From: Candidatus Spechtbacterales bacterium | GTDB taxonomy: Bacteria > Patescibacteriota > Minisyncoccia > Spechtbacterales > 2-12-FULL-38-22 | Direction of reading: 5' to 3' | Assembly (NCBI GenBank): GCA_040879145.1 | Contig: JBBDKX010000035.1 | Location: 1,122 to 65,121, forward strand | Length of the DNA: 64,000 nucleotides | In this document: one piece after another, positions 20,217 to 54,239 of the stretch | Layout: each line of letters starts with the position of its first letter | Position numbering within the stretch: position 1 is the first letter of the stretch | Notes under the pieces: generated by a model | Database searches by the model: none | Seen by the model: only the letters and a program-made list of their open reading frames with translations | What the model was told of the DNA's origin: nothing | Translations under genes and position numbers: made by a program

Positions 20217-21438
20217 GATTATTGATTTTTATAATTTCCTCTTTATCTGAACTTCTTCTCTTTATCTCAAAACCCCCGGCTTTCAAACTGCGCTCGCTTA
20301 CAACTACACGCAACGGAATTCCTATAAGATCGGAGTCTGCAAACTTCTGTCCGGCTGAAATATCTTGCCTGTCATCATATAGCACTTCTGTGTTTTGAGC
20401 AAGCAGTTTTTCATATAATTTATCGGCATCTTTTTCACCTCCTGAAAGCGCGATAAGATGCACCTTGAAAGGCGCTATTTCATCGGGCCACACAATACCT
20501 TTACCATCGGAGAGTACCTCAACTATAGTTCCCATTAACCTGCCAAGCCCTATGCCATAACTCCCCATTACAACCGGGTGGTTTTCTCCTTTTTCATCCG
20601 AATACGTAAAGCCAATTGCGTCAGAAACTCGCGTCCCAATGGGGAATATATTTCCAATTTCAACAGATCGCTTTTCTTCCAGCTTATCCTTAACTAATCC
20701 CAGCTCCTCTATTGTTTCATCTGTAAACACCTCTTTGTTTATAGCAAGTTTTTTATCTTTATCAATAAAAATGGTGTCCTCTCCTGCCTCTGATAAAACC
20801 TGAAACTCATCCGACCAGGGGCCGAACACACTCCCGTCCGCGCGGGTTAAATATGTTTTTTCCTTCAAACCAACCCGATCCACGATATTAAAATAGGCTT
20901 TTTTGGCTTCTTCATAAAAATGCATGAGCTCATTTTCTGTTCGTGAAAATGAATACATGTCTTTCATAAAAAATTCTCTGCCTCTCATAATACCGCTCTT
21001 TGCTCTCAACTCGTTACGGAATTTTGTCTGAAACTGATACACAGAAAACGGCAAATCCTTATATGAAGAAGTATGGTTTTTTAACATCTCGGCAATCACT
21101 TCTTCGTGGCTAAAAGCAAGGCCGAGATCCGACCCGTTTTTTAGTTTTGTCTTAAACCAAACATCCACTTTTTCATCATCCCATTTGTCCGCTTTTTTCC
21201 AAATCTCAGAATCCTGTAGAGTGGTCATTTCTATTTCCTGTCCACCTATTGTATTCATTTCTTCACGAATAACCCTCTCTATTTTTTTTAACACGCGCAA
21301 ACCAAGAGGCAAATATGAATAAACGCCCGCCATTTCTTTATTTATAAATCCCCCACGAATTAAAAGTATCGCGTTTTTTGAAACCTCATCTTTTGGGGCT
21401 TCTTTCCTTGTTTTTGTAAATAGGTTTGACTGACGCAT
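20194..21438 (-). CDS. proS: prolyl-tRNA synthetase (short, no editing insertion)
   Basis: class II motifs, N-term MRQSNLFTKTRKEAP..., C-terminal anticodon-binding domain. Confidence 0.85.
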   Translation of the reverse strand: MRQSNLFTKTRKEAPKDEVSKNAILLIRGGFINKEMAGVYSYLPLGLRVLKKIERVIREEMNTIGGQEIEMTTLQDSEIWKKADKWDDEKVDVWFKTKLKNGSDLGLAFSHEEVIAEMLKNHTSSYKDLPFSVYQFQTKFRNELRAKSGIMRGREFFMKDMYSFSRTENELMHFYEEAKKAYFNIVDRVGLKEKTYLTRADGSVFGPWSDEFQVLSEAGEDTIFIDKDKKLAINKEVFTDETIEELGLVKDKLEEKRSVEIGNIFPIGTRVSDAIGFTYSDEKGENHPVVMGSYGIGLGRLMGTIVEVLSDGKGIVWPDEIAPFKVHLIALSGGEKDADKLYEKLLAQNTEVLYDDRQDISAGQKFADSDLIGIPLRVVVSERSLKAGGFEIKRRSSDKEEIIKINNLPKWLNG

Positions 21439-21440
21439 GG

Positions 21441-21478
21441 TTTTGTCCCGATACCACCCAAATCTTTGATTCGCTTGC
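21441..21478 (-). promoter_or_regulatory. conserved leader motif directly upstream of proS ATG (gcgaatcaaagatttgggtggtatcgggacaaaacc)
   Basis: near-identical motif precedes rpsK ATG at 34318..34356. Confidence 0.55.
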
Positions 21479-21557
21479 AGTATCGTGGATCCTCGACGCT
21501 ATAACAAAATCAAAGATTTTGATAGCGTCGGGATTCGCAAGCTCACAAAACAAGATT

Positions 21558-21650
21558 ACACTGATAACAACTGATACCACTGATGATTTTTACATGCATC
21601 AGCGTAATCAGCCATTATCTGTGATATCTAAGCGAGCGAAGCGAGCTTAA
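21558..21650. repeat. cactgatRa...gatgattttta repeat family copy 1
   Basis: similar to 31801..31895; ends in cgagcgaagcgagcttaa module. Confidence 0.55.
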
Positions 21651-24192: not shown

Positions 24193-24296
24193 TTAATACA
24201 TAATATACTTTATACAGCAATTTTTAAATGTTCCACTGCACCTACCTGTATGCCAATTGAAACATGAACCGGCAGGCAGGGTGAAACATTTAAAAA

Positions 24297-24325
24297 TTGA
24301 CATTTTGTATATTTTGTGCTATTTT
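24297..24325 (+). promoter_or_regulatory. sigma70-like promoter TTGACA-N17-TATTTT
   Basis: ttgacattttgtatattttgtgctatttt, 35 nt upstream of SD ggaggaaag. Confidence 0.5.
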
Positions 24326-24359
24326 TATAGTAGTTCATACCACTATAGAAGGAGGAAAG

Positions 24360-24629
24360 ATGGAAGAGAAAATATCCAGAATATTTTTACCGACTATTCT
24401 TTTGGTTGCTTCTTCAAGCCTTTTACTATTTCTTATTGCAAGGATGGCATTTGTTGGTTTGACAGATGAAATACTTGTAAATTTCTTAGCAATATTTATG
24501 CTATTTGCTATAGGAGCCAGTATATCCCTATATACACTCATACAAAATATCGTACTCGCGATAACGGAACGGCACTGCACACATCAAGCACATAACTTGG
24601 AAATGGATACTCAGAAGGAGGAACGATGA
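24360..24629 (+). CDS. small membrane protein (89 aa, 2 predicted TM)
   Basis: strong SD ggaggaaagATG; hydrophobic segments. Confidence 0.55.
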   Translation: MEEKISRIFLPTILLVASSSLLLFLIARMAFVGLTDEILVNFLAIFMLFAIGASISLYTLIQNIVLAITERHCTHQAHNLEMDTQKEER

Positions 24630-24994
24630 AACCAAGATTTGCGGAAATCGCACGCAACATTGAAATTTCATTTCGCAAAGTAGTAGAATCTATATCTATG
24701 CTTGTAGGAAGTATTTTCATAGTCGTACTGGCAAGCATGATTGCAAGTTATCCGTCTCAAGTCGTGATGGTTCTTATCTCTATAACCCTTCTGGGCGCGG
24801 GCTCAAGAAAGCTCTACTCTTCAGGAAAAGATCTCCTAGTATACATTGTACTGGATGATCACGCTACAGACATGCGAATTTTCAATGAAGTGGGAGAGGT
24901 TGATAAAGAGTTGGATGAGATTAGAAAACCCAACCTATCCACAATTCGTGGCGCAAGCACAGACGGCGGAGATATACCACTGCCGACAAAATAA
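24626..24994 (+). CDS. small membrane protein (122 aa, 2 TM, acidic C-tail); translationally coupled
   Basis: ATGA overlap with upstream stop, SD aaggagg; terminator follows. Confidence 0.55.
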   Translation: MKPRFAEIARNIEISFRKVVESISMLVGSIFIVVLASMIASYPSQVVMVLISITLLGAGSRKLYSSGKDLLVYIVLDDHATDMRIFNEVGEVDKELDEIRKPNLSTIRGASTDGGDIPLPTK

Positions 24995-30569: not shown

Positions 30570-30584
30570 GAAAGAATACCTTTT

Positions 30585-30640
30585 ACGCGTGAACAAACTA
30601 AAAGCTCCGGATGTTCGGAGCTTTTAGTTTGTTCACGCGT
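30585..30640. repeat. perfect 25-bp inverted repeat with 6-nt loop
   Basis: acgcgtgaacaaactaaaagctccg-gatgtt-cggagcttttagtttgttcacgcgt; no U-tract either side. Confidence 0.8.
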
Positions 30641-30650
30641 AAATACAAAC

Positions 30651-30743
30651 CTACTTTTTCTTTCGGTGTCTCATTCGCCTGCGCATCTTCTTTCTTTTGC
30701 GCCTTTTAACAGATTTTCTTTTGTTTTTTAACTTAGTACCCAT
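30651..30743 (-). CDS. candidate 30-aa highly basic peptide (MGTKLKNKRKSVKRRKRKKMRRRMRHRKKK)
   Basis: my translation of minus strand; not in ORF track (<60 aa); lies between rpsI and the 25-bp palindrome. Confidence 0.3.
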   Translation of the reverse strand: MGTKLKNKRKSVKRRKRKKMRRRMRHRKKK

Positions 30744-30764
30744 GATATTTTATTCACTTTGTTC

Positions 30765-30894
30765 ATAAAAAGTATAGAGTATGCAGTATACAATATACAG
30801 GAGTGCTTTGTAATTAGCTTTGCTGAATACTCTATACTATATACTCTATACTTGAACGAGCGCGAAGCGTGAGTTTTAAGCTCGCTTCGCGAGT
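30765..30894. repeat. ~120-bp palindromic intergenic repeat, family A copy 1
   Basis: agtatagagtatgcagtatacaatatacaggagtgctttgtaattagctttgctgaatactctatactatatactctatacttgaacgagcgcgaagcgtgag. Confidence 0.8.
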
Positions 30895-31407
30895 TTATCG
30901 CTTGCTCCACTGTGGAGCTTTGCGAGCTTTTTTAAGTCCGTATTTCTTTCTTTCCTTTTCTCTCGGATCTCTCTTGAGAAATCCGGATTTTTTAAGGCGA
31001 AGTCTCATTTCTGCGTCATATTTTACAACCGCACGCGCAAGTCCGTGCCGTATCGCCTCTGCTTGTCCCCTGGAGCCTCCCCCATTAACAATTACGGACA
31101 CTTCAAACTTCTCAAGCATCTTAAGTTTGCGCAAGGGTCCGTTAGCTGCTGTAATCAAATCTTCTGTAGGAAGATATTTTGTATGGTCTTCACCGTTTAT
31201 GGTAAATTTGCCGGAACCATTGTCCCAAATACGCACACGGGCAACAGAAGATTTCCTTCTTCCCACTCCCTCAAAATACTTACCTTCTTTTTTTACGGTC
31301 TTTTTAGCTTTTGCCGGAACTGCCTTCTTTGCAGTTGTTTTCTTGGCCTTAGCCGGAGTTTTTTTCTTTGCGGTTGTTTTAGTTTCTGCCATTTTTTTAT
31401 TTTTCAA
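30895..31407 (-). CDS. rpsI: 30S ribosomal protein S9 with ~45-aa Lys/Ala/Thr-rich N-terminal extension
   Basis: GRRKSSVARV ... RDPREKERKKYGLKKARKAPQWSKR. Confidence 0.95.
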   Translation of the reverse strand: MKNKKMAETKTTAKKKTPAKAKKTTAKKAVPAKAKKTVKKEGKYFEGVGRRKSSVARVRIWDNGSGKFTINGEDHTKYLPTEDLITAANGPLRKLKMLEKFEVSVIVNGGGSRGQAEAIRHGLARAVVKYDAEMRLRLKKSGFLKRDPREKERKKYGLKKARKAPQWSKR

Positions 31408-31819
31408 CTATTAATCTCTTCATTCTGCCTTTTCTTAGGCGGTTGTCAGGCAACATTCTCTCAACGGCTTTTCTTATAACCCATGTAGGGTCCTTTTCGA
31501 ACATCTCCTCATATGTCTTGCCATAAATTCCGCCTGGATACCCTGAATAATGCCAGTAGATCTTGTCGGTCTTTTTCTTTCCTGTCACCTTGACCTTCTT
31601 GGCATTAACAACTTTGACGACGGTATCATCATCCATATTAGGCTTATAAGCAGGGCTGTGTTTTCCCTGCAAATATACAGCTATTTCCGTAGAAAGGCGT
31701 CCCAAAATCTGCCCCTTGGCATCCAGTTCAATAACCTCTTTCTTGCTTTCTGTTTTTTTTGAGGTTTTAGTTGTTATTTTCTTTTTACTCATATTTTTGA
31801 TTACACTATTTGATTGCAC
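31397..31819 (-). CDS. rplM: 50S ribosomal protein L13
   Basis: GQILGRLSTEIAVYLQGKH...PGGIYGKT. Confidence 0.95.
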   Translation of the reverse strand: MQSNSVIKNMSKKKITTKTSKKTESKKEVIELDAKGQILGRLSTEIAVYLQGKHSPAYKPNMDDDTVVKVVNAKKVKVTGKKKTDKIYWHYSGYPGGIYGKTYEEMFEKDPTWVIRKAVERMLPDNRLRKGRMKRLIVEK

Positions 31820-31895
31820 TGATGATAACTGATATCACTGATGATTTTTATCTGCTATCTGCGAAATCAGCTATTATCAGTGAAATCTGAAGCCT
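31801..31895. repeat. cactgatRa...gatgattttta repeat family copy 2
   Basis: cactgatgataactgatatcactgatgatttttatctgctatctgcgaaatcagctattatcagtg. Confidence 0.55.
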
Positions 31896-32245
31896 TACTC
31901 AACAAATTCAATAATTGCCCTTTTAGCAGCATCTCCCCTACGCACTCCCCTTTTTACTATTCTTGTATAGCCACCGGGTCTCTCTTTAAAGCGCGGCCCT
32001 ATCTCTTTTAGTAACTTCTCAACGATCTCTCCTGTAAATTCACGGTTCAACATTCTGCGTACATGCAGAGAATCATTACCGCTCTTTGTAACCAACTTTT
32101 CAATAAAAGGGCGAAGTTCTTTTGCTTTAGCCTCTGTAGTTTCTATTCTTTCATTTTTAACCAAAGCCTCCGCAAGAGAGCGAATTAACGCTTCGCGCTG
32201 GTCTTTCTTTCTATGAAATTTTCGTCCTTTTACAGATTTTTTCAT
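31895..32245 (-). CDS. rplQ: 50S ribosomal protein L17
   Basis: L17 family sequence. Confidence 0.95.
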   Translation of the reverse strand: MKKSVKGRKFHRKKDQREALIRSLAEALVKNERIETTEAKAKELRPFIEKLVTKSGNDSLHVRRMLNREFTGEIVEKLLKEIGPRFKERPGGYTRIVKRGVRRGDAAKRAIIEFVE

Positions 32246-32253
32246 ATTTAAAA

Positions 32254-33048
32254 TTATTTCTTCTTCTTAGCTGCAGGCTTCTTCTTTGCAGTTGTTTTCT
32301 TGGTGGCTGTCTTCTTGGCTGTAGCTTTTTTCTTTGTTGCAACTTTCTTCTTTTTCTTGCCCTGTAGTTCCTGTAAAACGTTGAAGTGATTAACAAGAAC
32401 ACCTACTGCGTGCTCAAACGCGTCCTCAGGATCAATTGTTCCATCAGTTACAATTTCAAGTACCAACTTATGATAGTCGGTCCTATCTCCAACTCGCATG
32501 TTTTCCACTTCAAAATTAACCTTTTTAACGGGAGTGAATACCGAGTCAAGACTAATTACTCCTATCTCTTTCTTCTCTTCATCTTCTTGATTTTGAACAT
32601 AGCCTAAACCGGACTCTACTTTTAACTCCATCTCAAAAGTTGTTTTTGGCGAAGTTATGCTCGCTATATGTAAATCTTTGTTTATTATTTCAACCTGGGA
32701 GGGTGTTTCAATATCTCCCGCCTTTATATCCTTTGGACCTTTCACTTTCAATTTAAGAGTCCTGGGCTCTGAACCATGAAGTTTTAATCTTATCTGCTTA
32801 AGATTAAGACTTAGTTCAATTCCGTCTTCAAGTACGCCGTCTATTGTTGAAAATTCGTGTGGAACTCCCGCTATTTTTACTGATGTTATAGCAGCTCCCG
32901 GCAAAGATGCGTACAACGCGCGTCTTAAGGCATTTCCTATTGTAGATCCAAATCCAGGATAAAGCTCGCTAATCTCAATAACGGCTCTGCTGTCGCTCTT
33001 TTCTACAACTTTAGGTTTTTTGGGCAATGATAGTGAAACTGATTCCAT
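32254..33048 (-). CDS. rpoA: DNA-directed RNA polymerase alpha subunit, N-terminal domain only, with Lys-rich tail instead of alpha-CTD
   Basis: alpha-NTD motifs GNALRRALYASLPG; ends GKKKKKVATKKKATAKKTATKKTTAKKKPAAKKKK. Confidence 0.9.
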   Translation of the reverse strand: MESVSLSLPKKPKVVEKSDSRAVIEISELYPGFGSTIGNALRRALYASLPGAAITSVKIAGVPHEFSTIDGVLEDGIELSLNLKQIRLKLHGSEPRTLKLKVKGPKDIKAGDIETPSQVEIINKDLHIASITSPKTTFEMELKVESGLGYVQNQEDEEKKEIGVISLDSVFTPVKKVNFEVENMRVGDRTDYHKLVLEIVTDGTIDPEDAFEHAVGVLVNHFNVLQELQGKKKKKVATKKKATAKKTATKKTTAKKKPAAKKKK

Positions 33049-33219
33049 ATTTTTTATTTCCTACCTGCGTCGCATTTTGCAACACGGCAGGCAGGCGCTT
33101 CGCTCACATAACCGCTGATATATGCTAATTTTGCGGATTTTATGCAGATAGTATCCGCATTAATCTGCTTTAATCCGTATTAATCCGCGGTTTAAGCGAA
33201 GCGTTAGTGAGCTTAATTA

Positions 33220-33711
33220 TTATCGTGAATAAAACTCTATAACTGTTTGAAAATTAAACGGCTGTATTTGTTCTTTAATATCAGGTAAAGATTTTACCTT
33301 TAACTCCTTTTTCTTTTTATCTAAAACCAACCATGATGGAGGATTGAGGTTCTTTACTCTTATCTCGTAATCGGCAAATATTCCCTTTACAGCGCTTGTT
33401 TCTTTGACTGTTATAATATCGCCAGGGCGCACCTGATAAGATGCTATGGTAACCTTCTTTCCGTTTACTTGCATATGCCCATGGCTTATAAGCTGCCTTG
33501 CCATCCGCCGTGTTGGCGTGAATCCTCCCGCAAAAACAATGCTATCCAGACGAAATTCAAGTAAAGAAAAGATATTTTCGGGCTTTTGTCCCTTATCAAA
33601 ATACCGCCTGAATTGCTTTTCGCGCAACCCATACTCTTCGCGGATTTTCTGTTTTTCCGCAAGCTGTAAACCGTACTCTGATTTTTGTCTTGGTCTTCCT
33701 CCTTTTGCCAT
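33220..33711 (-). CDS. rpsD: 30S ribosomal protein S4 (short form)
   Basis: S4 domain RLDSIVFAGGFTPTRRMARQLISHGHMQVNGKKV. Confidence 0.9.
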   Translation of the reverse strand: MAKGGRPRQKSEYGLQLAEKQKIREEYGLREKQFRRYFDKGQKPENIFSLLEFRLDSIVFAGGFTPTRRMARQLISHGHMQVNGKKVTIASYQVRPGDIITVKETSAVKGIFADYEIRVKNLNPPSWLVLDKKKKELKVKSLPDIKEQIQPFNFQTVIEFYSR

Positions 33712-33809
33712 AATAATTATTTGTGGCTAAGCCCTTTGGGCCGCCATCCCGGCCGTTAGGCCTAGGGACTTCACTCACAAATTTAGGATTTAGGAATTAG
33801 GAGATAGGA

Positions 33810-33862
33810 GTTAGCTTTTTTTACGTTTTCTAATTCCTATTTCCTAAGCCCTAATTCCTGCG
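33810..33862. repeat. tttttttacgttttctaattcctaWttYctaa...ttcctgcgagc repeat (copy 1)
   Basis: cf. 34487..34545. Confidence 0.6.
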
Positions 33863-33874
33863 AGCTTTAGTGAG

Positions 33875-34312
33875 TTATACTCTTCTTCTTTTAGCCGGCC
33901 TGCATCCATTGTGGGGCAGTGGCGTAACATCTTTAATTGCAGTAACATTCAACCCTTTGCCCGTTAAAGCTCTGACAGAAGAATCTCTGCCGGCCCCTAT
34001 CCCTGTAACATAGATATGCACCTCTTTCATGTCAACATTTTCCAATTTACTTAAAAGTATGTCTACAACCTGTGTCGCGGCATACGGAGTAGCCTTTCTC
34101 GGTCCCTTAAAGCCCGCGGCACCCGCAGTTGACCACGCCAAAACATTGCCGTCCTGGTCTGAAGCGGTAAGCATTGTATTGTTGTAACTTGCGCGCACAT
34201 AAATATTCCCTCGTTCAACTATACGAGCTTTCTTTTTATTCTTGGCTTTCTGAGCGTCCGTTTTGGATGCCTGATCGCCTGCTTCAACTATTGCTACACG
34301 TTTTTTACCCAT
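33875..34312 (-). CDS. rpsK: 30S ribosomal protein S11 with Lys-rich N-terminal extension
   Basis: S11 family core; C-terminal region GIGAGRDSSVRAL. Confidence 0.95.
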   Translation of the reverse strand: MGKKRVAIVEAGDQASKTDAQKAKNKKKARIVERGNIYVRASYNNTMLTASDQDGNVLAWSTAGAAGFKGPRKATPYAATQVVDILLSKLENVDMKEVHIYVTGIGAGRDSSVRALTGKGLNVTAIKDVTPLPHNGCRPAKRRRV

Positions 34313-34317
34313 AATTT

Positions 34318-34356
34318 TTTGTCCCGATACCGCCCGAATCTTTGATTCGCCTGCCT
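34318..34356 (-). promoter_or_regulatory. conserved leader motif directly upstream of rpsK ATG (gcgaatcaaagattcgggcggtatcgggacaaaaaatt)
   Basis: same motif as upstream of proS; preceded by CCTGCCTGCC hairpin. Confidence 0.55.
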
Positions 34357-34486
34357 GCCGGTTTACATGCCGATTGGCATGCAGGCAGGCTCACAAAAAG
34401 TGAACAGTAAGCAGTGAACAATTAACAACAGGGCTCCGTTTTTTCTTTTCTACTGTTTCCTGTTCACTGTTTACTGTTATCTGCGA

Positions 34487-34545
34487 GCTTTAGTTTTTTT
34501 ACGTTTTCTAATTCCTAATTTCTAATTCCTAATTCCTGCGAGCCT
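34487..34545. repeat. tttttttacgttttctaattcc... repeat (copy 2)
   Basis: gagctttagtttttttacgttttctaattcctaatttctaattcctaattcctgcgagc. Confidence 0.6.
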
Positions 34546-34615
34546 GTCTGCGTGCGTTCACCTGTCTGCCGTGCTTGCGGCACAGGTAGACGCACAGGCA
34601 GGCGTTAGTGAGCTA

Positions 34616-35005
34616 TTAAGTTGCGGATGGGGGCGGTTTTCTTCCCGATCCCACTGTGGTTCTTTTATTTCCGCGAACTGTCCTGGAATTAACACGCGTC
34701 CTCTGTCCACGGACGGGAAGTCCTTTCTGGTGTCTTGAACCCCTGTATGTACCTATATCTTTAAGACGCTTTACGTTCTCACGAACATCTCTCCTTAAAT
34801 CACCTTCTATCAAATGTCCTTCAGATATGGCGTTCCTAAGTTGGTTAAGCTGATCGCCTGTAAGATCCTTTATTCTTATGTTTTCGTCTATGCCTGCATC
34901 CTTAAGTATCTTGCGACTCAAAGTACGCCCTATGCCATGCACATAAGTAAGGGCAATAACTACTCTTTTATTGTCCGGAATCTCAACTCCTGCTATTCTT
35001 GCCAT
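34616..35005 (-). CDS. rpsM: 30S ribosomal protein S13
   Basis: [10 protein letters not shown]...[25 protein letters not shown]. Confidence 0.95.
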
Positions 35006-35011
35006 AATGAT

Positions 35012-35129
35012 TTTATCCTTGCCTTTGTTTATGCTTCGGATTTGTTTTGCATATCACATAAACACGGCCCTTCCTACGAACAACCTTGCATTGATTGCAT
35101 ATTTTTTTTACCGAAGCTCTAACTTTCAT
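35012..35129 (-). pseudogene. rpmJ: 50S ribosomal protein L36 gene with 1-nt frameshift at A8 tract (as sequenced)
   Basis: my translation: [10 protein letters not shown] then +1 frame [28 protein letters not shown]; 118 nt = 39 codons + 1. Confidence 0.7.
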
Positions 35130-35141
35130 AATTTAGGTCCT

Positions 35142-35363
35142 TTATTTAAAACGATAAACAATTCTACCTCTGCTTTCACCCTCGGAAGGTATTTCTATTT
35201 TAACCCTGTCACCGACCAAAATACGTATCCTGTGTATTCTCATTTTCCCGGATACATATGATAGTACTTCACGCCCGTCCTCCAGCTCTACACGAAACAG
35301 GGTGTTTGGGAATGCTTCTAAAACAACCCCTTCTATACTTTCTATATTATTGTTTTGTGCCAT
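35142..35363 (-). CDS. infA: translation initiation factor IF-1
   Basis: S1-like OB fold, EGVVLEAFPNTLFRVELEDGREVLSYVSGKMR. Confidence 0.95.
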   Translation of the reverse strand: MAQNNNIESIEGVVLEAFPNTLFRVELEDGREVLSYVSGKMRIHRIRILVGDRVKIEIPSEGESRGRIVYRFK

Positions 35364-35631
35364 AAAGTGACTATGTTGAACTCAAATCTATTAAACTCAG
35401 ACCTCTACAATGATAACAAAATAAAAAAAATAGGTCAACCCCCACACCAATTTATGGGATTTCTTAGCTACTATAATGAAATTATTGACGGTATAACAAA
35501 TTGGTAGTGGGGGTCAACCCCTATTTTTAATAGGTCCCTAGGCCTTTGGCTGGTGGCTAGGCGTAAAGCCGCCATCCCGGCTCTGCCTAGGGAGATCCCG
35601 GCCCGCCCGCGCGGGTCTAGGGACTTCGCTT

Positions 35632-35742
35632 CACGAAAAGTACAAAGTATACAGTATTTGATATGCAGGGGTGCTTTATAATTAGCTTTGCTTAATACTA
35701 TATACTGCATACTGTATACTTGAACGAGCGAAGCGAGCTTAA
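35632..35742. repeat. family A palindromic intergenic repeat copy 2
   Basis: cacgaaaagtacaaagtatacagtatttgatatgcaggggtgctttataattagctttgcttaatactatatactgcatactgtatacttgaacgagcgaagcgagc. Confidence 0.8.
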
Positions 35743-37562
35743 TATTCCACCTCTATTTTCACCTTTTTTGGATTATCGGGCACACTTTTTACCCAAAATG
35801 GCCAAAACATGACCTGTGCCCTGCGCAGTGATTCATTTGCTGAAAGGATTCTCCTGACCTCTGCCTCATCTTTCCCTATAACATCCTTTAAAATAGCGGA
35901 GGTATCTACTACCATATCAAATCGTTGGTTCGCTTTAAGGTTAAACTCGGCATATCCGGCTTCATAATTTGCCTCTTTTACTGTATATTCCACATCCCTC
36001 TCTTCGGCAAGCTCAAATTCCTTGCTGTACTGTGTAGAATTTATAAAATAATGCGCAATTGAATTGCTTATATCTTCCTCTTTTATAAGAAATGCCTGGG
36101 CCACTCCAACGAATCTCACTGTAAAATCATCCTTTGGCTCACCAACTACAGCATCAATATCTAAAGACTCTACATGCGCGCCAAGAGACTCTTCAAGCAT
36201 TTTAAGATCGTCCGGAACTTTACTCCTGAGGCTTTGTTCAAGAGCTGGTAAAAATTCGTCCTGTATTCTTGCCCTAGCTCCCTCTATGTCCTCTTCTGTC
36301 GGAACAGTAGCCACCCCTTGAAATCCGCCCGTCATTGAATTTTCGCTCTTTCCGTAAAAAGCCAGATATTTTGGATCGCCCTGAAATCCGGGAATAGAGA
36401 AGGTGGTAGGTCCTATATTAAAACTATCTCCTGCCTCATCAGCACGTACATCAACAGAAACAGAACTGGCTATTATCCTTCCTCCTTCTATTTGCGCGCC
36501 CGGAACAACTACGGTTTCGGTTGTTCTAAAAAGTTTATTTTCAGAAGACATAAGTCTTGTGTTTGCAACCAAAGTTTGTGGACTTGAGCTGTACTCATTA
36601 TAAATTGTTACCCCACCGACGGAAAATTCTTCCAATTGCGCCTCACCTGTCGCCTTGTATACAAATGTCTCTTCTTTTCTCTCCTCTAAAATTTGAGCCG
36701 GTATAGTACTTCGATTATAGTCAGCGGAGGAAATATTACTGTCAGCCACCACTGCAAACTCCATTTGGTCTTGCACAACATGCGGACTTAAAACTATTGT
36801 TGCTTTAGGAAGAACACTTGTCGCCAAATACCCCACACCAACCACGACTGCGACAATTCCGACAAAACCCAGTAAATACAAGGGTTTCTTCAAAAAAGCG
36901 GGAAGGGATAGATTTTTCATCTTTCCTGTTGCAAATCTTCCCGCCCTTGCGCCAACAGATGCGCCTGGAAGAGAAAATCCTTTGCTTGATTTTGAAAAAA
37001 CATCCCTTCGTTCCTCTTCCGGGTCGTATCTTTTAACAGGCATATCAGGTTCTGCATCTTCCGTGTCCGTATTTAATGTGTCTTCTTTTTTAGTTTTGGG
37101 CTCCTCAAAAGACCGAGGGGCAAATATACCACCGGTCTTCTCATCTGCCTCAACACTGTCAGACGCAACAATGCCTCCGCTTCTTGTTTTTCTAAGATCT
37201 GTTGTATGTTCAAGATACTCTTGTCTGCTTGTGGGCGGCAATATATCCGTGACAGAGCGGGCATAATGCCCCGAGTGCGTTGTTGTAGAAATATTAGCTT
37301 TATCTTCCACCTCATCTCTAACTTTTAATCCGGCCTTAGCGGCAAGGTTTTGTATTCTTGAATCTTCGGAAATAACAACAACTTCCTTATCAACGTCTTC
37401 GGATGCCCTTTTAATCAGTCTTAAATTCAAAACATTTTGGGCTATAAACGCCTCGCTCGGAATAAGCAAAAACACCAGTCTAGATTCAGACGTTACTACT
37501 TTATCTATAACTGAAGTAAGTTCTTCAGAAGGTCCTACTTTTATCACACTGCCTTTTGTCAT
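35739..37562 (-). CDS. hypothetical bitopic membrane protein (607 aa; ~230-aa cytoplasmic N-domain, TM, large C-terminal domain)
   Basis: TM KPLYLLGFVGIVAVVVGVGYLATSVL; no family recognised. Confidence 0.5.
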   Translation of the reverse strand: MTKGSVIKVGPSEELTSVIDKVVTSESRLVFLLIPSEAFIAQNVLNLRLIKRASEDVDKEVVVISEDSRIQNLAAKAGLKVRDEVEDKANISTTTHSGHYARSVTDILPPTSRQEYLEHTTDLRKTRSGGIVASDSVEADEKTGGIFAPRSFEEPKTKKEDTLNTDTEDAEPDMPVKRYDPEEERRDVFSKSSKGFSLPGASVGARAGRFATGKMKNLSLPAFLKKPLYLLGFVGIVAVVVGVGYLATSVLPKATIVLSPHVVQDQMEFAVVADSNISSADYNRSTIPAQILEERKEETFVYKATGEAQLEEFSVGGVTIYNEYSSSPQTLVANTRLMSSENKLFRTTETVVVPGAQIEGGRIIASSVSVDVRADEAGDSFNIGPTTFSIPGFQGDPKYLAFYGKSENSMTGGFQGVATVPTEEDIEGARARIQDEFLPALEQSLRSKVPDDLKMLEESLGAHVESLDIDAVVGEPKDDFTVRFVGVAQAFLIKEEDISNSIAHYFINSTQYSKEFELAEERDVEYTVKEANYEAGYAEFNLKANQRFDMVVDTSAILKDVIGKDEAEVRRILSANESLRRAQVMFWPFWVKSVPDNPKKVKIEVEY

Positions 37563-39160: not shown

Positions 39161-39424
39161 TTAATCATTCAAAAGAGTTGCCCTATACAAAAGTTCGTCC
39201 AATACTCCAATTACAACATTGTGGTCTGACCAACCCTCTGAAGTTGGATATGCCGCATGTATTCCCATATAAATTATACCCAGAGCTTCTTCTTCTGAAA
39301 CAGCTTCCACAAGGCACACATTATGGAGTATTTTCTTTGTAAGTGCTATTTTGTCTTCAGCAGAATCTACATCCGTGTGTTCTTGAATAACCACGAAAGA
39401 TCCGATATAACGAGTTTTAGACAT
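39161..39424 (-). CDS. hypothetical small protein
   Basis: ORF track 39161..39505; internal Met MSKTRY more plausible start. Confidence 0.35.
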   Translation of the reverse strand: MSKTRYIGSFVVIQEHTDVDSAEDKIALTKKILHNVCLVEAVSEEEALGIIYMGIHAAYPTSEGWSDHNVVIGVLDELLYRATLLND

Positions 39425-39641
39425 CTTTTCTCCTTCCAGTGAACTAAAACAAAAATACCACAAATTAATGTGGTGGTCAATAAATTTAAACCAACGCGGA
39501 GCCAATTTTTCTTTTAAGTAGCTCTCGGAAGCGGAAAAGCTTGGTTCCCGTCAGGGATTTTGCGCTGAGAGGCAGCGGCGGATTTTCGCTGGAAAAATCC
39601 GACCGCGGTACTTAAAAGAAAAGATTGGCGGAGCGTACACT

Positions 39642-41548: not shown

Positions 41549-41851
41549 TTACAGTCCCCTTCTCTCGTGGTGGTCGCCGTAGCGAAGTTCACGCTCCAAA
41601 TCCTGAAGCTCCCTGCTTCTTCTTTTTTTAGATACCTCCTTAACGCGTATATCGTTCTCTAATCTTCTTATCTCAACCTGTCTCTTTCGCAAATCGCGAC
41701 TGGCTTCATTTATGGTCTGTTCAAGCTTTTCCTCTTCTTTTTTCGCTTCCAATAGCTTTTTATTTAATTCTTCAAGCTCACCCTCCTCTTTTTCAAGCAT
41801 CATTCTAAAATGCTTAATATCGCGGGGGGATATGTCTCCTTGCATTATCAT
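41549..41851 (-). CDS. hypothetical coiled-coil protein (100 aa)
   Basis: E/K/R-rich heptads; terminator-like hairpin 41888-41916 upstream. Confidence 0.4.
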   Translation of the reverse strand: MIMQGDISPRDIKHFRMMLEKEEGELEELNKKLLEAKKEEEKLEQTINEASRDLRKRQVEIRRLENDIRVKEVSKKRRSRELQDLERELRYGDHHERRGL

Positions 41852-41935
41852 ATGCTCTTATTATACATCATTATGGGACAAAATAAAAAAACAGCCCCTT
41901 AAATATTGGGCTGTTATAAAAAATTGGGGTGGTAA

Positions 41936-42211
41936 TTAGTCTTGTTCTTCAACAAGCTCTATTCTTACCTTTGTATGGGGTGATTCTTTGTCGTAAATAA
42001 ATTCCTTTTTTAAAACCCTGTATTTCTTGCCTTCTTTCAACTGTCCGGGTCCGTTTTTTGTGCCATCAGCTACCACATCAATGAAAAATACTTTTTCTTC
42101 CACAGAGCCATCTCCTTTTTTGTCCGGCATATATGATATTCTTTGAGAAAACTCCGCTAAACGCAATGTATTCTTGCGCAATCGCTTGCGTTCTTCATCT
42201 GTTAGAGCCAT
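41936..42211 (-). CDS. hypothetical protein (91 aa)
   Basis: ORF track only. Confidence 0.4.
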   Translation of the reverse strand: MALTDEERKRLRKNTLRLAEFSQRISYMPDKKGDGSVEEKVFFIDVVADGTKNGPGQLKEGKKYRVLKKEFIYDKESPHTKVRIELVEEQD

Positions 42212-42289
42212 ACGAAACCTCCTCTTAAGTACTGAGTATACTCTACCAAAATTTTAAAAAATGTCAAAAATTTAAACCCGATTTTTATT

Positions 42290-42907
42290 CTATTGTACAA
42301 CCTTCGTCAAAACCTTGCCTATTCTCTCCGCCATTATTTTATTTCCGGCGTCATTTGGGTGTATAGAGTCGTGCATAAGGTCGCGATTCTTTAAAATATT
42401 CTTTAAAATATTCGGAACAAAAGCGCTTCTGGTTTCTTTGGCAAGTTCTTCGTATTCGTCGTCATAAGGATCAAGTAATTTTCCCGGAATACCCACAAGC
42501 ACAACTACCGCCCCTTCGGCCTGTATGCGGGTTATTATTTGCTCCAGATTATTAAGAGTTTCTTCTTTTGGTATGCGGCGCAAAACATCATTACCGCCAA
42601 GTAAAATTATTACAATTCGCGGGTTTTTATCCAAAACATCACTATCTAAACGCGCCAAAGCGCTTTCTGTTGTATCTCCGTTCACTCCCGCGTTTGTTAT
42701 CTCCTCGCTTATATCACGGCTTAAAACATCTACCCAATTATTCCCCTCGGTTGCTCCGGCGCCATAAACTAAGCTATCCCCAAACGCCACAATGTTTTTA
42801 CCTGCAACAGGTTGCTTTACATCCCGATTCTCACGCGTAAAAAAATACACAACCCCCACGATCAGCAAAACAACCGCAATATAAATTATTATTTTATTTA
42901 AATTCAT
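42290..42907 (-). CDS. SGNH/GDSL-family hydrolase (lipase/esterase) with N-terminal TM/signal
   Basis: block I FGDSL, block III GGND, block V DSIHPN. Confidence 0.8.
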   Translation of the reverse strand: MNLNKIIIYIAVVLLIVGVVYFFTRENRDVKQPVAGKNIVAFGDSLVYGAGATEGNNWVDVLSRDISEEITNAGVNGDTTESALARLDSDVLDKNPRIVIILLGGNDVLRRIPKEETLNNLEQIITRIQAEGAVVVLVGIPGKLLDPYDDEYEELAKETRSAFVPNILKNILKNRDLMHDSIHPNDAGNKIMAERIGKVLTKVVQ

Positions 42908-43002
42908 ACTTATAGTTTACCAAAACAAAAGCCGGCTCCAAAGAGCACAAAAATACACAGGTTCAACCTGTGTATTTTACACAAACTAAAAACCGGCTCT
43001 TT

Positions 43003-43043
43003 AGAGCCGGCCACGACCGTAGTGTAATGTCAGATTGAAAATA
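43003..43043. repeat. cacgaccgtRgtgtaatgtcagattgaa direct repeat copy 1
   Basis: cf. 43860..43918; flank gene 43078..43791. Confidence 0.65.
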
Positions 43044-43072
43044 AAAAACAGACCTTCCGAAGGTCTGTTTTA
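43040..43072. terminator. bidirectional terminator
   Basis: aaaaaacagaccttccgaaggtctgtttta. Confidence 0.7.
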
Positions 43073-43077
43073 AAGAA

Positions 43078-43791
43078 CTAATTCGTTTCCGGTTCAATTT
43101 GCAGCTTCACACATGCTTTATCATACACGGCAGCAACTAAGCGACCGATAAGAGTTTTCCTTAACCTCGGCCATGCTTTTACTATCAAAGTGATAATAAA
43201 GGCCAACAAAGGCAAGCCGACAAAAGCTACAGCGCCCAAAGTAAGCAGCAGAGAACGCCAAGACTCAGCTGTCTGAGGAAGGAACGGTCCTTCGGCTTCA
43301 ACAAATAATCCTTCTGTAACGCCTTTGTATATAAGATAGGGAATAGCCACCACTAAAATAAGTATTGCGGGTAGCCACCAAGATAAAAACGCCACCAATT
43401 TCCAGTAAGTAGGGCAAATCCGAACTTCTTCGGGCACATCTTTAATAAATACTGTCCAGCCGCTATCGGTTACAATTTCTTTGTCCGGAGTGTAATTCTG
43501 GATAATCTTATACAGCCATGAACCCCTTGGCACCTGCCCTTTTTCGTTCAAAACGAAAAAAGTAGCAAATAGTAAAGCAACAGCCGGTATAAGCAGTAAC
43601 ACAACGACGACAACTGCAGCGAATAGCTTAGATCTAATATCTTCTATAAACAGAGGATCGCCGGGAAAATAACTATCATCAGCACCAACATACCTTGTCG
43701 GATGCCAATTCTGCCACAACCAAATAATTCCCACGTTTAAGAGCGCTATAAAGCCAACAAGCGATAATCTTGATTTGATCATTCCATTCAT
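43078..43791 (-). CDS. hypothetical polytopic membrane protein
   Basis: several hydrophobic helices; ORF track. Confidence 0.5.
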   Translation of the reverse strand: MNGMIKSRLSLVGFIALLNVGIIWLWQNWHPTRYVGADDSYFPGDPLFIEDIRSKLFAAVVVVVLLLIPAVALLFATFFVLNEKGQVPRGSWLYKIIQNYTPDKEIVTDSGWTVFIKDVPEEVRICPTYWKLVAFLSWWLPAILILVVAIPYLIYKGVTEGLFVEAEGPFLPQTAESWRSLLLTLGAVAFVGLPLLAFIITLIVKAWPRLRKTLIGRLVAAVYDKACVKLQIEPETN

Positions 43792-45357: not shown

Positions 45358-46029
45358 TTACTTGGTAATATTGCTGATTAGCCACTCGGATAGTTCGTCC
45401 ATAAACTCAGGGTGTTTTTTAAAAATATCAGTACCATGACCGCCCTCCTCATAAATACGGGTCTTAACACGCTCTCCTCCGCAATCTGCTATTTCTCCTA
45501 CCGCTCTAAACGAATCTGGCACGTTTGGGTCGTCCTTTGTAGCAGCCATATATATCGCCTGACCGGCGCGTAATTTCTTAATCAAAGGCAGTGTTTCTAT
45601 GCCGTGATAATCAAACCCGGGAGAAAGAGCAAAACCGACCTGCGATTGCGGGTTTTGCGCCATATACTGTATAGACAAGTTTGCTCCTATAGACGCGCCA
45701 CCGACAACAATATTTTTAATTTCCACACCTTTATTTATAAAAAAATCCTGCGCAGCCAAAACATCAAACATTTTTTCCTGTTGCTGTTTGCTTGAAAATT
45801 CCCTGTAATCCAACTTCCCTCCTTGTGTACTTTCACCATGCCCGCGCTCGTCTATCGCTAAAACCTGAAATCCTTTTTCCAACAATAAAGACGCAAATTC
45901 ATCCCAACTCTCTTTGGTTGAAGGCATCATATGAAGCAAAATAACAGCAGGCGATGTTTCATCGCCTGCCGGATAGTAATCTCCTACTATTTTTATATTA
46001 TCTTTAGTTGTAAGCGTAACCTTTTCCAT
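45358..46029 (-). CDS. alpha/beta-fold hydrolase (dienelactone hydrolase/esterase-like)
   Basis: GxSxG nucleophile elbow GGASIG; catalytic Asp/His candidates. Confidence 0.7.
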   Translation of the reverse strand: MEKVTLTTKDNIKIVGDYYPAGDETSPAVILLHMMPSTKESWDEFASLLLEKGFQVLAIDERGHGESTQGGKLDYREFSSKQQQEKMFDVLAAQDFFINKGVEIKNIVVGGASIGANLSIQYMAQNPQSQVGFALSPGFDYHGIETLPLIKKLRAGQAIYMAATKDDPNVPDSFRAVGEIADCGGERVKTRIYEEGGHGTDIFKKHPEFMDELSEWLISNITK

Positions 46030-53935: not shown

Positions 53936-54238
53936 TCAGACGGGTTGCAGTTGGTCCGGGTCAACAATGACAAGTCTCGTAGACTTGCCCTGCTTCCGGT
54001 CCAACTCCACCGTGTAGTTCGGGAAGTCCAGAATCTCTGTTCCGTTCTTTTCCGTCACGGTGGTGATACCGGCAACTGCCGGACAGCGGTGTTCGTCGGG
54101 AACTCCGACGACCACACCCTGAAGGGTGCCCCGGCGAGTGCTAACCACCCGGCGATGTAAGCTCTCATTGAGAGTAAGCACCTCAACCGGAAGGATAACG
54201 AACACGCGCGTTCCCACCTGAAGTCTATTTTCGGCCAT
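53936..54238 (-). CDS. hypothetical protein (100 aa) in GC-rich segment
   Basis: strong SD ttaaggaggtgaaATG; no family recognised. Confidence 0.5.
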   Translation of the reverse strand: MAENRLQVGTRVFVILPVEVLTLNESLHRRVVSTRRGTLQGVVVGVPDEHRCPAVAGITTVTEKNGTEILDFPNYTVELDRKQGKSTRLVIVDPDQLQPV

Positions 54239-54239
54239 T

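Follow-up and report, generated by a model that had tools for sequence, protein, structure and literature searches.

Gene Order and Spacing of the infA-rpsI Operon

Ribosomal-protein and RNA-polymerase genes usually form a compact operon, but in the tiny-genome bacterium considered here, a member of the Patescibacteria (order Spechtbacterales), this operon is spread apart by small hairpin-forming repeats. Within the 64-kb stretch of DNA that was analyzed (hereafter, the window), the order infA-rpmJ-rpsM-rpsK-rpsD-rpoA-rplQ-rplM-rpsI is intact, with all genes on the minus strand (NCBIfam profiles), a strand assignment absent from an earlier sequence-only reading of the locus. The cluster opens with a tight block of infA (35142-35363), rpmJ (35013-35129) and, as its final gene, rpsM (uS13; 34616-35005; TIGR03631, E 1e-45), in which the gaps measure 12 nt (infA-rpmJ) and 7 nt (rpmJ-rpsM). 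It continues with rpsK (uS11; 33875-34312; NF003698, E 7e-47), rpsD, which encodes a short 163-aa form of uS4 (33220-33711; NF003717, E 4e-51, profile positions 40-202), rpoA (32254-33048; TIGR02027, E 1e-76), whose 264-aa product lacks the alpha-CTD, and rplQ (bL17; 31895-32245; TIGR00059). The overlapping pair rplM-rpsI (30895-31819; TIGR01066 and NF001099) completes the series, with rplM at 31397-31819 (the ATG at 31792 being its likelier start) and rpsI at 30895-31407.

The sequence-only reading had described the rpsM-rpsK-rpsD-rpoA-rplQ cluster as split by long spacers, and our measurements bear this out at three junctions: rpsM-rpsK (303 nt), rpsK-rpsD (163 nt) and rpsD-rpoA (171 nt). 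The gap of about 75 bp given for rplQ-rplM also holds, at 75 nt (102 nt when measured to the likelier rplM ATG), and rpoA-rplQ (8 nt) and rplM-rpsI (overlapping) are as tight as described.

Architecture of the Repeat Elements

The spacers are mosaics of recurring modules, most of which have more copies elsewhere in the window: a stop-abutting GCTCRC/GCGAAGC clamp, long hairpins with arms of 7-nt tandem units, a TTTTGTGAGC right end, CCTGCCTGCC hairpins and an A-rich leader. Read on the sense strand, a typical unit begins at the upstream stop codon TAA with a GC-rich GCTC(G/A)C clamp, often accompanied by a GCGAAGC-type mini-hairpin, and proceeds through an AT-rich hairpin of 25-35 bp, with arms of degenerate tandem heptamers that differ from family to family and a family-specific loop. 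To the right, TTTT-GTGAGC(GAAGCG) is followed by an optional CCTGCCTGCC or other GC-rich hairpin, and the unit ends in an A-rich leader, (GCGAAC)AAAAAT, that runs into the ATG of the next gene.

All elements described below lie on the minus strand. The rpsM-rpsK spacer opens with a module abutting the stop codon, TAA-TAGCTCACTAACGCC, after which stands a GC-rich hairpin of the CCTGYC type (34544-34615). Next comes a Family B half element (34494-34543; 92% identical to 33816-33865) made up of GCTCGCAG, a GGAATTA heptamer arm (TRF period 7) and the loop AAAACGTAAAAAAA; its right arm is missing and the next element stands in its place, as in a nested or truncated copy. That element is a hairpin with ACAGTRA heptamer arms (34389-34493; inverted repeats I3/I7, fold, TRF period 7/14), bounded by the left end CTAAAGCTCGCAG and the right end TTTTTGTGAGC. 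A 43-nt CCTGCCTGC hairpin, GCCTGCCTGCATGCCAATCGGCATGTAAACCGGCAGGCAGGCG (34348-34390), and a repeated 5' leader module, GCGAATCAAAGATTCGGGCGGTATCGGGACAAAAAATT (34313-34350), complete the spacer; the latter ends at the rpsK ATG and is 87% identical to the leader of an aaRS-like gene starting at 21438. The rpsK-rpsD spacer holds a full Family B element (33773-33874; repeat search, TRF, fold), in which stop-abutting CTCACTAAAGCTCGCAG leads into a hairpin of AGGAATT-type heptamers around the loop AAAACGTAAAAAAA, closed on the right by AAATTTGTGAGT. Then comes a GC-rich module, GAAGTCCCTAGG...GCCGGGATGGCGGC...TAGCCAC, with an A/T-rich leader ending at the rpsD ATG (33712-33772); a related sequence with indels lies at 35532-35640, upstream of infA. 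The rpsD-rpoA spacer combines a Family D element (33097-33219; fold, TRF period 10), built of stop-proximal TAATTAAGCTCACTAACGCTTCGC, a long hairpin of ~10-nt GCGGATTAA-type units and the right end GTGAGCGAAGC, with a CCTGCCTGCC...GCAGGTAGG hairpin and the leader AAATAAAAAAT before the rpoA ATG (33049-33096; motif search, fold), the 3' arm of that hairpin overlapping the SD-like AGGTAGGA.

The rplQ-rplM spacer (31793-31894) is a decayed Family C element of CTGATRA units, 82% identical to a copy at 21540-21650 that retains the left end TTAAGCTCGCTTCGC and the right end TTTTGTGAGC; TAACTGA is also present once in this spacer. The spacer at 30744-30894 separates rpsI from a conserved K/R-rich ORF of 30 aa and carries ACTCGCGAAGCGAGC, a mini-hairpin of the GCGAAGC kind, together with a Family A copy; in the latter, a 7-nt AGTATAC hairpin encloses a conserved 22-nt loop, AGCAAAGCTAATTAYAAAGCAC. 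A further Family A copy (35622-35738) adjoins the stop codon of an upstream 607-aa gene (TAA followed by GCTCGCTTCGCTCG...).

The aattagg/taattcc heptamer arrays are confirmed (TRF and repeat search), and GCKYTAGTGAGC has exactly three copies in the window, directly after the stop codons of rpsM, rpsK and rpsD; an exact motif search of the window did not find it after the rplQ stop. Sites matching CCTGCCTGCC with at most one mismatch number 24 window-wide against 2.4 expected and are found in the rpsM-rpsK and rpsD-rpoA spacers, but are missing from rpsK-rpsD. Exact TTTTTTTACGTTTTC occurs twice, at 33816 and 34494.

Window-wide, period 7 appears in 20 of 49 TRF rows, and lag-7 autocorrelation reaches 0.318 vs. 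~0.275, in intergenic DNA only. Fold z-scores against dinucleotide shuffles are -6.7 (rpsM-rpsK), -5.6 (rpsK-rpsD) and -7.2 (rpsD-rpoA), a stability well beyond chance. Intergenic DNA makes up only ~11% of the window and holds 18-19 of its 21 long inverted repeats, and a [GA]CTC[GA]C clamp lies 0-8 nt from the stop codon in 7 of 52 minus-strand genes (~0.4 expected). The window holds four Family A copies, each on the minus strand; Family B (92% identity), Family C (82%), the leader module (87%) and the GC-rich module have two each. Module copies also flank unrelated genes, including those for an aaRS, a T4SS-coupling-protein-like product and an HhH-GPD glycosylase, and occur in the divergent promoter region 24193-24296. 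There are no compensatory changes among the four Family A copies and sense and antisense folding energies are similar, and thus there is no direct evidence of selection on RNA structure.

Comparison With Related Genomes

Gaps at the three junctions were compared in ~75 Patescibacteria relatives, where the medians are 25 nt (rpsM-rpsK), 18.5 nt (rpsK-rpsD) and 54.5 nt (rpsD-rpoA); the 303 nt of the window's rpsM-rpsK spacer exceeds every one of these relatives (maximum 243 nt). The closest relative found, L082 (protein identity 85% for rpsM, 92% for rpsK, 89% for rpsD and 82% for rpoA), lacks all three large spacers, with gaps of 14, 5, and 58 nt, respectively, and blastn homology to it ends at the stop codons and restarts 4-9 nt ahead of the next ATG. 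The sequence-only reading had proposed such a comparison, and what it returned was absence in this relative, not identical long spacers free of repeats. At ~20% nucleotide divergence, no clear target-site duplications were recognized at the junctions relative to L082. In L085, a relative fully syntenic with the window over >20 kb, 12 shared junctions hold ~321 nt of spacer vs. ~1535 nt in the window, about five times less.

Placement of the elements varies within the Spechtbacterales. The same element architecture is present in L002, L003, L004, L008 and L085 at other junctions, and in L004 rpsI and the K/R-rich 30-aa ORF lie ~6 nt apart where the window has its spacer. The 43-nt hairpin of the rpsM-rpsK spacer is 100% identical in L003 (4231-4273), another species whose rpoA is only 69% identical to that of the window, and there it sits at the rpsK-rpsD junction in the opposite orientation. 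This more distant species also carries a Family D-like element at the same rpsD-rpoA junction, so that loss of an ancestral spacer in L082, and not an insertion, could account for this junction. The metagenome and viral collections scanned held no further copy of the Family A loop, and mobility beyond the lineage is consequently documented for the 43-nt module only.

Origin of the Spacers

We consider that the spacers are probably mosaics of small, non-coding palindromic elements of the MITE/REP-BIME/ERIC/SPRITE kind, which have proliferated, with some decay, between the genes of this lineage, those of the infA-rpsI operon included, and would be co-transcribed within that operon. One of two suggestions in the sequence-only reading, repeated insertion of small elements, is supported by the missing spacers of L082, the module copies at unrelated loci and the inverted 43-nt module in another species.

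The other suggestion, a lineage-specific organization in which each spacer would end transcription of the gene before it and start that of the gene after it, with r-protein genes transcribed singly, we regard as unlikely. The elements do stand directly after stop codons, and the 3-5 T that follow the heptamer hairpins (TTTTTGTGAGC, CTTTTCGTGA) are nearly sense-only (7 sense and 1 antisense TTTKTGAGC right ends), such that they resemble weak unidirectional intrinsic terminators and weak termination or attenuation is possible. However, a consensus scan calls no canonical hairpin-plus-T-tract terminator in the three large spacers, yet textbook terminators follow other genes of the window. The promoter half of the suggestion is not supported: in the three large spacers, the promoter scan found no sense-strand sigma-70-like site, although clear TTGACx-17-TATxAT and TG-TATAAT promoters occur elsewhere in the window. 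The best and only convincing site of the region, TTGACC-17-TATCAT with TG (35410-35438, minus strand), lies upstream of infA and is likely the operon promoter; the GGGGTTGACC motif is also found upstream of infA in L084 and L085. Because rpoA lacks the alpha-CTD, promoter architecture may be unusual and could escape a sigma-70 scan. Nevertheless, the closest relatives have no such spacers at these junctions, which argues against a conserved regulatory design, and the same modules are present in the divergent promoter region as well.

A purely local origin, whereby the spacers grew in place through heptamer slippage and fold-back duplication without a mobile element, appears somewhat less probable again. 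In many bacteria, heptamers slip most readily among the long simple repeats (Mrazek, 2007, as relayed in PMC4679880), the arms differ among elements, unit copy number varies, and neither a transposase or RAYT domain (~50 ORFs scanned in the window) nor a target-site duplication (vs. L082) was found. Such growth leaves unexplained, however, the near-identical non-repetitive loops, clamps and leader at unrelated loci (e.g., the 22-nt Family A loop, n = 4; the Family B loop, n = 2; the leader module, n = 2) and the identical, inverted 43-nt module of another species. It is very improbable that these strongly structured RNAs immediately upstream of r-protein genes are lineage-specific autoregulatory leaders, such as S4- or L13-binding mRNA structures, given that the three large spacers match no Rfam leader even at E<=1, that the modules also flank the unrelated genes named above, and that they are missing in L082. 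Equally hard to credit is an assembly or binning artifact, with chimeric joins at repeats. The source is a contig of a metagenome-assembled genome (MAG), repeats are assembly-prone, and the Logan contig L001 breaks within the rpsD-rpoA repeat; yet this independent contig is 100% identical to window positions 32216-33181, including 133 nt of the rpsD-rpoA spacer, which argues against the misassembly raised by the sequence-only reading, as do the synteny with L085 and the same element architecture in independent MAGs of other studies.

Relation to Known Repeat Systems

CPR/Patescibacteria-specific searches of the paper collection consulted yielded no account of such repeats. Elsewhere, BOX, RUP and SPRITE elements cluster together and insert into each other, Correia elements are cleaved by RNase III, and ERIC elements at 3' ends change mRNA levels (review PMC10969869). 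The window elements resemble all of these in kind, sequence similarity not being expected, as they are small (~50-130 bp), non-coding and multi-copy, with inverted termini and long hairpins (PMC10969869). Like BOX/RUP/SPRITE and other MITEs, they are mainly intergenic, often in 3' UTRs or inside operons; they cluster and nest in one another, as BOX/RUP/SPRITE do, and have the terminator-like hairpin plus T's of SPRITE. Correia and ERIC elements are transcribed together with neighboring genes and affect how mRNA is processed and how stable it is, which would be a further likeness. Unlike pneumococcal and other MITEs, the window elements have no identified target-site duplication or parent IS, their stems consist of degenerate 7-nt tandem units whose sequence varies between families sharing clamps, they adjoin a stop codon on one side and an A-rich leader or ATG on the other, and their host is a Patescibacteria genome.

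The classic role of REPs is to protect upstream mRNA, as in the malE-malF case. Like the REP/BIME (REPIN) sequences of gamma-proteobacteria (PMC3116915, PMC3733652), the CCTGCCTGCC...GGCAGGCAGG hairpins are 25-45-nt GC-rich extragenic palindromes that join other motifs in mosaics, in either orientation, within operons. Unlike them, they lack a consistent GTAG/CGTC tag, their loops are variable and long, their copy number comes from one window, and that 64-kb window contains no RAYT gene. Cyanobacterial STRR heptamers can pair as the two sides of one RNA helix, P12 of RNase P. STRR sequences are intergenic heptamer tandem repeats, going by Mazel (1990) and the title of Vioque (1997) as cited in PMC2858038, and the TAACTGA repeats of Beggiatoaceae are tandem heptamers confined to intergenic DNA, including the inside of ribosomal-protein operons (PMC4679880). 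The window heptamers are likewise short, tandem and restricted to intergenic DNA, also within a ribosomal-protein operon, but they always form two complementary hairpin arms between conserved clamps, heptamers of many different sequences occur and arrays are short (3-5 units), whereas the Beggiatoaceae repeats are direct repeats just upstream of start codons. A sense-strand stem-loop and T run right after the stop codon also recall Rho-independent terminators, but the elements have AT-rich stems of 25-35 bp with periodic mismatches, only 3-5 T precede GTGAGC, the consensus scan makes no call, and ordinary terminators occur elsewhere in the genome.

Implications for the Operon and the Lineage

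If the spacers are indeed spreading palindromic elements, transcription would still proceed from the conserved infA promoter, and the elements would form stable stem-loops within a polycistronic mRNA and break translational coupling. Their hairpins would probably be 3'-end protecting, processing or weakly attenuating for the upstream cistron, and the retained A-rich leader may let the downstream cistron initiate independently. The heptamer arms would most likely diversify through replication slippage after insertion. As the elements also lie between many other genes, they represent a flavor of known bacterial "junk/regulatory" repeat and not a new operon type. The phenomenon is not operon-specific: it is genome-wide, with copies counted in one 64-kb window, and common to the order Spechtbacterales.

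Organization of the Ribosomal Protein Operon

The prevailing view of Patescibacteria (CPR) genomes is that they are streamlined and gene-dense and that their ribosomal protein operons are conserved and tightly coupled. In the Candidatus Spechtbacterales contig JBBDKX010000035.1, NCBIfam matches place infA, rpmJ, rpsM, rpsK, rpsD, rpoA, rplQ, rplM and rpsI in the canonical order on the minus strand. The infA-rpmJ (12 nt), rpmJ-rpsM (7 nt) and rpoA-rplQ (8 nt) junctions are tight, and rplM and rpsI overlap. A sequence-only reading had described the operon as split by repeat-laden spacers, and its distances prove correct; measured here are 303 nt for rpsM-rpsK (34313-34615), 163 nt for rpsK-rpsD (33712-33874), 171 nt for rpsD-rpoA (33049-33219) and, for rplQ-rplM, 75 nt to a GTG start, or 102 nt to a more plausible ATG at 31792. 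The motifs it named are likewise all present. GCKYTAGTGAGC occurs three times in the 64 kb, each time directly 3' of the rpsM, rpsK or rpsD stop codon, and TTTTTTTACGTTTTC twice; CCTGCCTGCC-like matches number 24 across the whole window against 2.4 expected, with eight paired hairpins among those listed; and the aattagg/taattcc arrays are resolved by TRF as period-7 tandem repeats.

A chimeric assembly, which the same reading had allowed for as the undoing of its claim, is argued against by an independent Logan assembly (L001) that is 100% identical to 32216-33181, including 133 nt of the rpsD-rpoA spacer, by synteny with L085, a contig of a relative, and by the shared architecture of metagenome-assembled genomes from other studies. 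The L001 contig end falls inside the rpsD-rpoA repeat, as is the case with short-read contigs.

The rpoA gene (32254-33048, minus strand) encodes 264 aa, with a profile match up to about position 250 of 300-340 and a lysine-rich tail, and the protein appears to have no alpha C-terminal domain; the rpoA products of L085 and of L082, the closest contig compared, carry PF01193 and PF01000 only. Ribosomal protein S4 (33220-33711, minus strand) has 163 aa, with about 38 residues missing from the N terminus relative to its bacterial counterpart, and is identical to an NCBI entry derived from a Candidatus Spechtbacterales metagenome-assembled genome. Its 48 closest homologues (at least 50% identity) are nearly all 157-167 aa long, with one of 179 aa, and distant ones measure about 200-210 aa; those with a name among the 48 belong to Spechtbacteria or Spechtbacterales. 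N-terminal extensions relative to the family profiles are seen on the minus strand in S9 (30895-31407; ~44 aa, rich in Lys, Ala and Thr), S11 (33875-34312; ~25 aa) and L13 (31397-31819; ~18 aa), and K-rich DNA repeats (families D3-D5) are common to the S9 extension and the rpoA tail. Downstream of rpsI, a Lys/Arg-rich ORF of 30 aa (30651-30743, minus strand; MGTKLKNKRKSVKRRKRKKMRRRMRHRKKK) is conserved at the nucleotide level, again after rpsI, in the related contigs L004 and L003. It has no Pfam match, and we take it to resemble the very small basic ribosomal proteins, bS22-like in kind.

Anatomy and Distribution of the Spacer Elements

Read on the sense (minus) strand, every large spacer is a mosaic of modules, and the three fold with z scores of -6.7, -5.6 and -7.2 against dinucleotide shuffles. 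The recurring unit starts where a TAA stop codon runs into GCTC(G/A)C, often with mini-hairpins of the GCGAAGC type, a motif found in 17 copies against 7.4 expected. Its core is a long AT-rich hairpin with a family-specific loop and arms composed of three to five degenerate heptamers (AGGAATT, ACAGTRA, AGTATAC or CTGATRA, the last marking Family C) or of ~10-mers (GCGGATTAA). There follows TTT(T)GTGAG(C/T), often succeeded by GAAGCG, and then frequently a GC-rich hairpin, either CCTGCCTGCC...GGCAGGCAGG or the module GTCCCTAGG...GCCGGGATGGCGGC, before an A-rich leader that runs up to the next ATG. The short GC-rich ends of an element, or clamps, form the pair TAAGCTCRC ... TTTTGTGAGCGAAGCG. The arrangement in the rpsM-rpsK spacer is nested or truncated: a Family B (AGGAATT) element without its right arm precedes an ACAGTRA element that is complete, and the right clamp of the latter pairs in the predicted fold with the Family B left clamp.

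Most of these modules recur elsewhere in the window. Family A (AGTATAC arms) has a 22-nt loop, AGCAAAGCTAATTAYAAAGCAC. Its four copies all lie on the minus strand: one in the gap between rpsI and the small ORF, one 5' of infA, and two more at 47.8 and 59.3 kb. The two copies of Family B are 92% identical. The rplQ-rplM spacer is a partly decayed copy, 82% identical to an element at 21.5 kb that has kept both clamps; the 38-nt leader of rpsK is 87% identical to that of an aaRS-like gene at 21.4 kb; and the GC-rich module 5' of rpsD has a related counterpart 5' of infA. Intergenic DNA makes up only about 11% of the window but holds 18-19 of its 21 long inverted repeats. Autocorrelation at lag 7 (also 14 and 21) reaches 0.318 versus ~0.275, in intergenic DNA only, and 20 of the 49 rows of TRF output have period 7. 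The clamp [GA]CTC[GA]C lies 0-8 nt from the stop codon in 7 of 52 minus-strand genes, against an expectation of ~0.4 estimated from motif frequency. Judged by their sequence, the spacer modules are repeats and not locus-specific sequence. When metagenomes were scanned with the Family A loop, the only match was a chance one within a glycosyltransferase gene, and scans of viral contigs with that loop and the loop of a 43-nt hairpin from the rpsM-rpsK spacer gave none.

Comparison with Related Genomes

The best relatives in genome collections are Spechtbacteria and other Patescibacteria with rpoA identities of 65-70%, and exact look-up of the window rpoA, rpsK and rpsD proteins returned a 966-nt Logan contig only. 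In L082, a Logan contig of 2.66 kb whose proteins are 82-92% identical to those of the window, the spacers measure 14 nt (rpsM-rpsK), 5 nt (rpsK-rpsD) and 58 nt (rpsD-rpoA), and blastn homology with the window stops at each stop codon and restarts 4-9 nt 5' of each start. The rpoA-rplQ spacer is reversed in size, at 77 nt in L082 versus 8 nt in the window. L085 (S4 identity 67%) is collinear with the window for more than 20 kb, and its spacers at 12 shared junctions total ~321 nt versus ~1535 nt in the window. The comparison of orthologous junctions proposed with the sequence-only reading thus finds L082 and L085 without these elements there, and the suggestion that small elements were inserted into the operon gains support from the missing spacers in L082 and the recurrence of modules at unrelated loci. 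The stretch aligned with L085 (21.6-47.8 kb) also holds several small or unknown genes that L085 does not have, among them 24297-24994 (plus strand), 41549-43791 (minus strand), which includes a GDSL lipase, an alpha/beta hydrolase gene (45358-46029) and a doubtful 114-aa ORF (39161-39505).

Among ~75 Patescibacteria, with gaps computed from the longest ORFs and not assuming the short form of S4, the medians are 25, 18.5 and 54.5 nt at the three large-spacer junctions and 19, 9 and 4 nt at three others. Gaps of at least 150 nt occur at the three junctions in 6 of 75, 5 of 72 and 4 of 78 relatives (5-8%), and the 303 nt of the window is matched by none of the ~75. Elements of this type are also present in other Spechtbacterales (L002, L003, L004, L008 and L085), at other junctions: L002 has GGCTCGCGG-[TAGTAAC-type arms]-TTTTGTGAGCTTGCGAACAAAAATC at infA-rpmJ, L003 has elements at rpmJ-rpsM and rpsK-rpsD, and L004 has TAAGCTCACTTCGTGAGCAG-[TAGGTAG arms]-AATTTTGCGAAGC. 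The rpsM-rpsK spacer shares its 43-nt hairpin CCTGCCTGC with the rpsK-rpsD spacer of L003, where the copy is inverted and 100% identical; the rpoA of that contig is only 69% identical to that of the window. For the rpsD-rpoA spacer alone, insertion may not be the explanation: a Family D-like element (~10-nt units) sits at that junction in the window and L003 alike, and may be ancestral, with later loss in L082.

Transcription and Possible RNA-Level Effects

The sequence-only reading had offered, as its other explanation, that each gene carries its own promoter and terminator. A sigma-70 scan (-35 and -10 hexamers 16-18 nt apart) found no sense-strand site in any of the three large spacers, so the promoter half of this explanation is not supported; weak termination may occur. 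Outside them, a weak match (9/12) lies at 31902-31873, and upstream of infA there is one strong promoter, TTGACC-17-TATCAT with TG (35438-35410). At 35421-35531 (minus strand), an inverted pair of GGGGTTGACC around a 61-nt spacer forms a large palindrome that includes the promoter -35 box; the GGGGTTGACC motif is also found upstream of infA in L085 and in L084, a further contig compared, and is absent elsewhere in the window.

No canonical terminator (GC-rich stem and at least 5-6 T) was detected on the sense strand in a scan of the three spacers, where the element hairpins have AT-rich stems followed by 3-5 T; ordinary terminators are obvious 3' of other genes of the window. At 30582-30643, between a convergent gene for a 475-aa PEGA-domain protein and the small ORF, an inverted repeat of 28 bp without mismatches encloses a 6-nt loop and looks like a bidirectional terminator of another style than the heptamer hairpins. 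At gathering score, Rfam matches across the whole window are limited to tRNAs and tmRNA, with no leader RNA, and at E<=1 the 30.5-35.8 kb stretch yields only chance miRNA-like hairpins and no ribosomal-protein leader. Adjoining the tmRNA gene is a gene-free stretch of 506 nt (54161-54666) that folds at -191 kcal/mol. A sub-threshold sRNA match aside, it resembles no family in Rfam at gathering score or at E<=0.1. Because the spacers have no promoter, canonical terminator or Rfam leader, we infer that the infA promoter still drives the operon, whose mRNA would then contain the elements.

Hairpin and U-tract are oriented 7:1 in the sense direction in the window, and those copies inspected in relatives are sense-oriented too. 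Within an mRNA the elements could plausibly act in weak termination or attenuation, in protection of 3' ends after processing, or in targeting by RNase III/E; such effects on mRNA have been recorded for elements of the REP, Correia and ERIC types (PMC10969869). The orientation bias could equally have come from an insertion mechanism specific to one replication strand, since nearly all genes in the region share one strand. No selection on RNA structure is evident: a covariation test found no compensatory changes among the four Family A copies, and although the sense strand has more G-U pairs (140 versus 86) and a lower total energy (-1487 versus -1420 kcal/mol), the bias is small, the two strands fold about equally well, and the difference is not decisive.

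Relationship to Known Repeat Classes

In kind, the elements are small intergenic palindromic repeats. They resemble MITEs (taken as non-coding, multi-copy and ~50-500 bp) in their length of 50-125 nt, their 2-4 copies per family in 64 kb and their want of a conserved ORF; in their inverted ends, left GCTCGC(TTCGC) and right (GCGAAGC)GTGAGC, which make the whole element an imperfect palindrome; and in their presence/absence polymorphism, being missing in L082 and L085 and found at other junctions in L002, L003 and L004. The empty sites of L082 reveal no clear target-site duplication, only possible TAA...TAA pairs at two junctions, at ~20% divergence. Pfam searches of ~50 window ORFs found housekeeping genes only and no transposase or RAYT domain.

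The CCTGCCTGCC hairpins are GC-rich extragenic palindromes in many copies, as REPs are (criterion 20-40 bp), and the spacer mosaics recall BIMEs. REP/REPIN sequences carry a conserved terminal GTAG or CGTC tag (PMC3733652). Here, in contrast, there is no consistent terminal tag, GGTAGG lying in the stem of some copies only. No RAYT (Y1 transposase) gene was found within the 64-kb window. Tandem 7-nt units enriched in intergenic DNA are shared with the cyanobacterial STRR. These were reportedly described in RNase P by Vioque in 1997, and Elhai is said to have treated small dispersed repeats in 2008. The TAACTGA repeats of Beggiatoaceae are also found inside ribosomal protein operons (PMC4679880). 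Both STRR and TAACTGA are direct repeats, however, whereas those of the window are clamp-bracketed hairpins. A TIGR-Tas array (PMC12045711) was rejected, there being neither a 36-nt periodic array nor a Tas-like protein, as was CRISPR, there being no repeat-spacer array. Searches specific to CPR/Patescibacteria in the literature collection used here turned up no account of such repeats. What distinguishes the elements is their heptamer-periodic stems, their conserved clamps at the stop codon and start-proximal leader and their minimal-genome host, together with their being common to the order Spechtbacterales, including one module identical across species.

Implications for Spechtbacterales Biology

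It is conceivable, though in our estimation rather unlikely, that the elements are orientation-specific "intercistronic cassettes" found throughout Spechtbacterales, kept by selection and spread by a mechanism that is not IS-like. Such a cassette would be a portable module in one piece, joining a stop-abutting clamp, a heptamer-periodic U-tract hairpin and an ATG-abutting A-rich leader. Selection would favor it for breaking up the translational coupling within operons of a minimal genome, so that each cistron could be tuned separately, and its spread might include exchange between species.

The clamps, loops and orientation bias provide a concrete set of elements for tests of mRNA processing, termination and translation coupling. 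There are practical consequences as well. Short-read assemblies are fragmented by these repeats, with Logan contigs ending within them, and the repeats may give rise to spurious ORF calls, such as 30869-31414 (plus strand), 35471-35710 (minus strand) and 21426-21650 (plus strand). These three and 34971-35261 (plus strand) are mechanically called ORFs of 74-181 aa that run through repeat spacers or antisense to ribosomal protein genes, and all four are likely spurious. For the lineage itself, structured repeat mosaics of 100-300 nt are tolerated amid essential, stoichiometrically balanced genes, with about five times the spacer DNA of a syntenic relative. Even minimal genomes, it follows, allow small palindromic repeats to proliferate, and the compactness of operons is evolutionarily labile across short distances.
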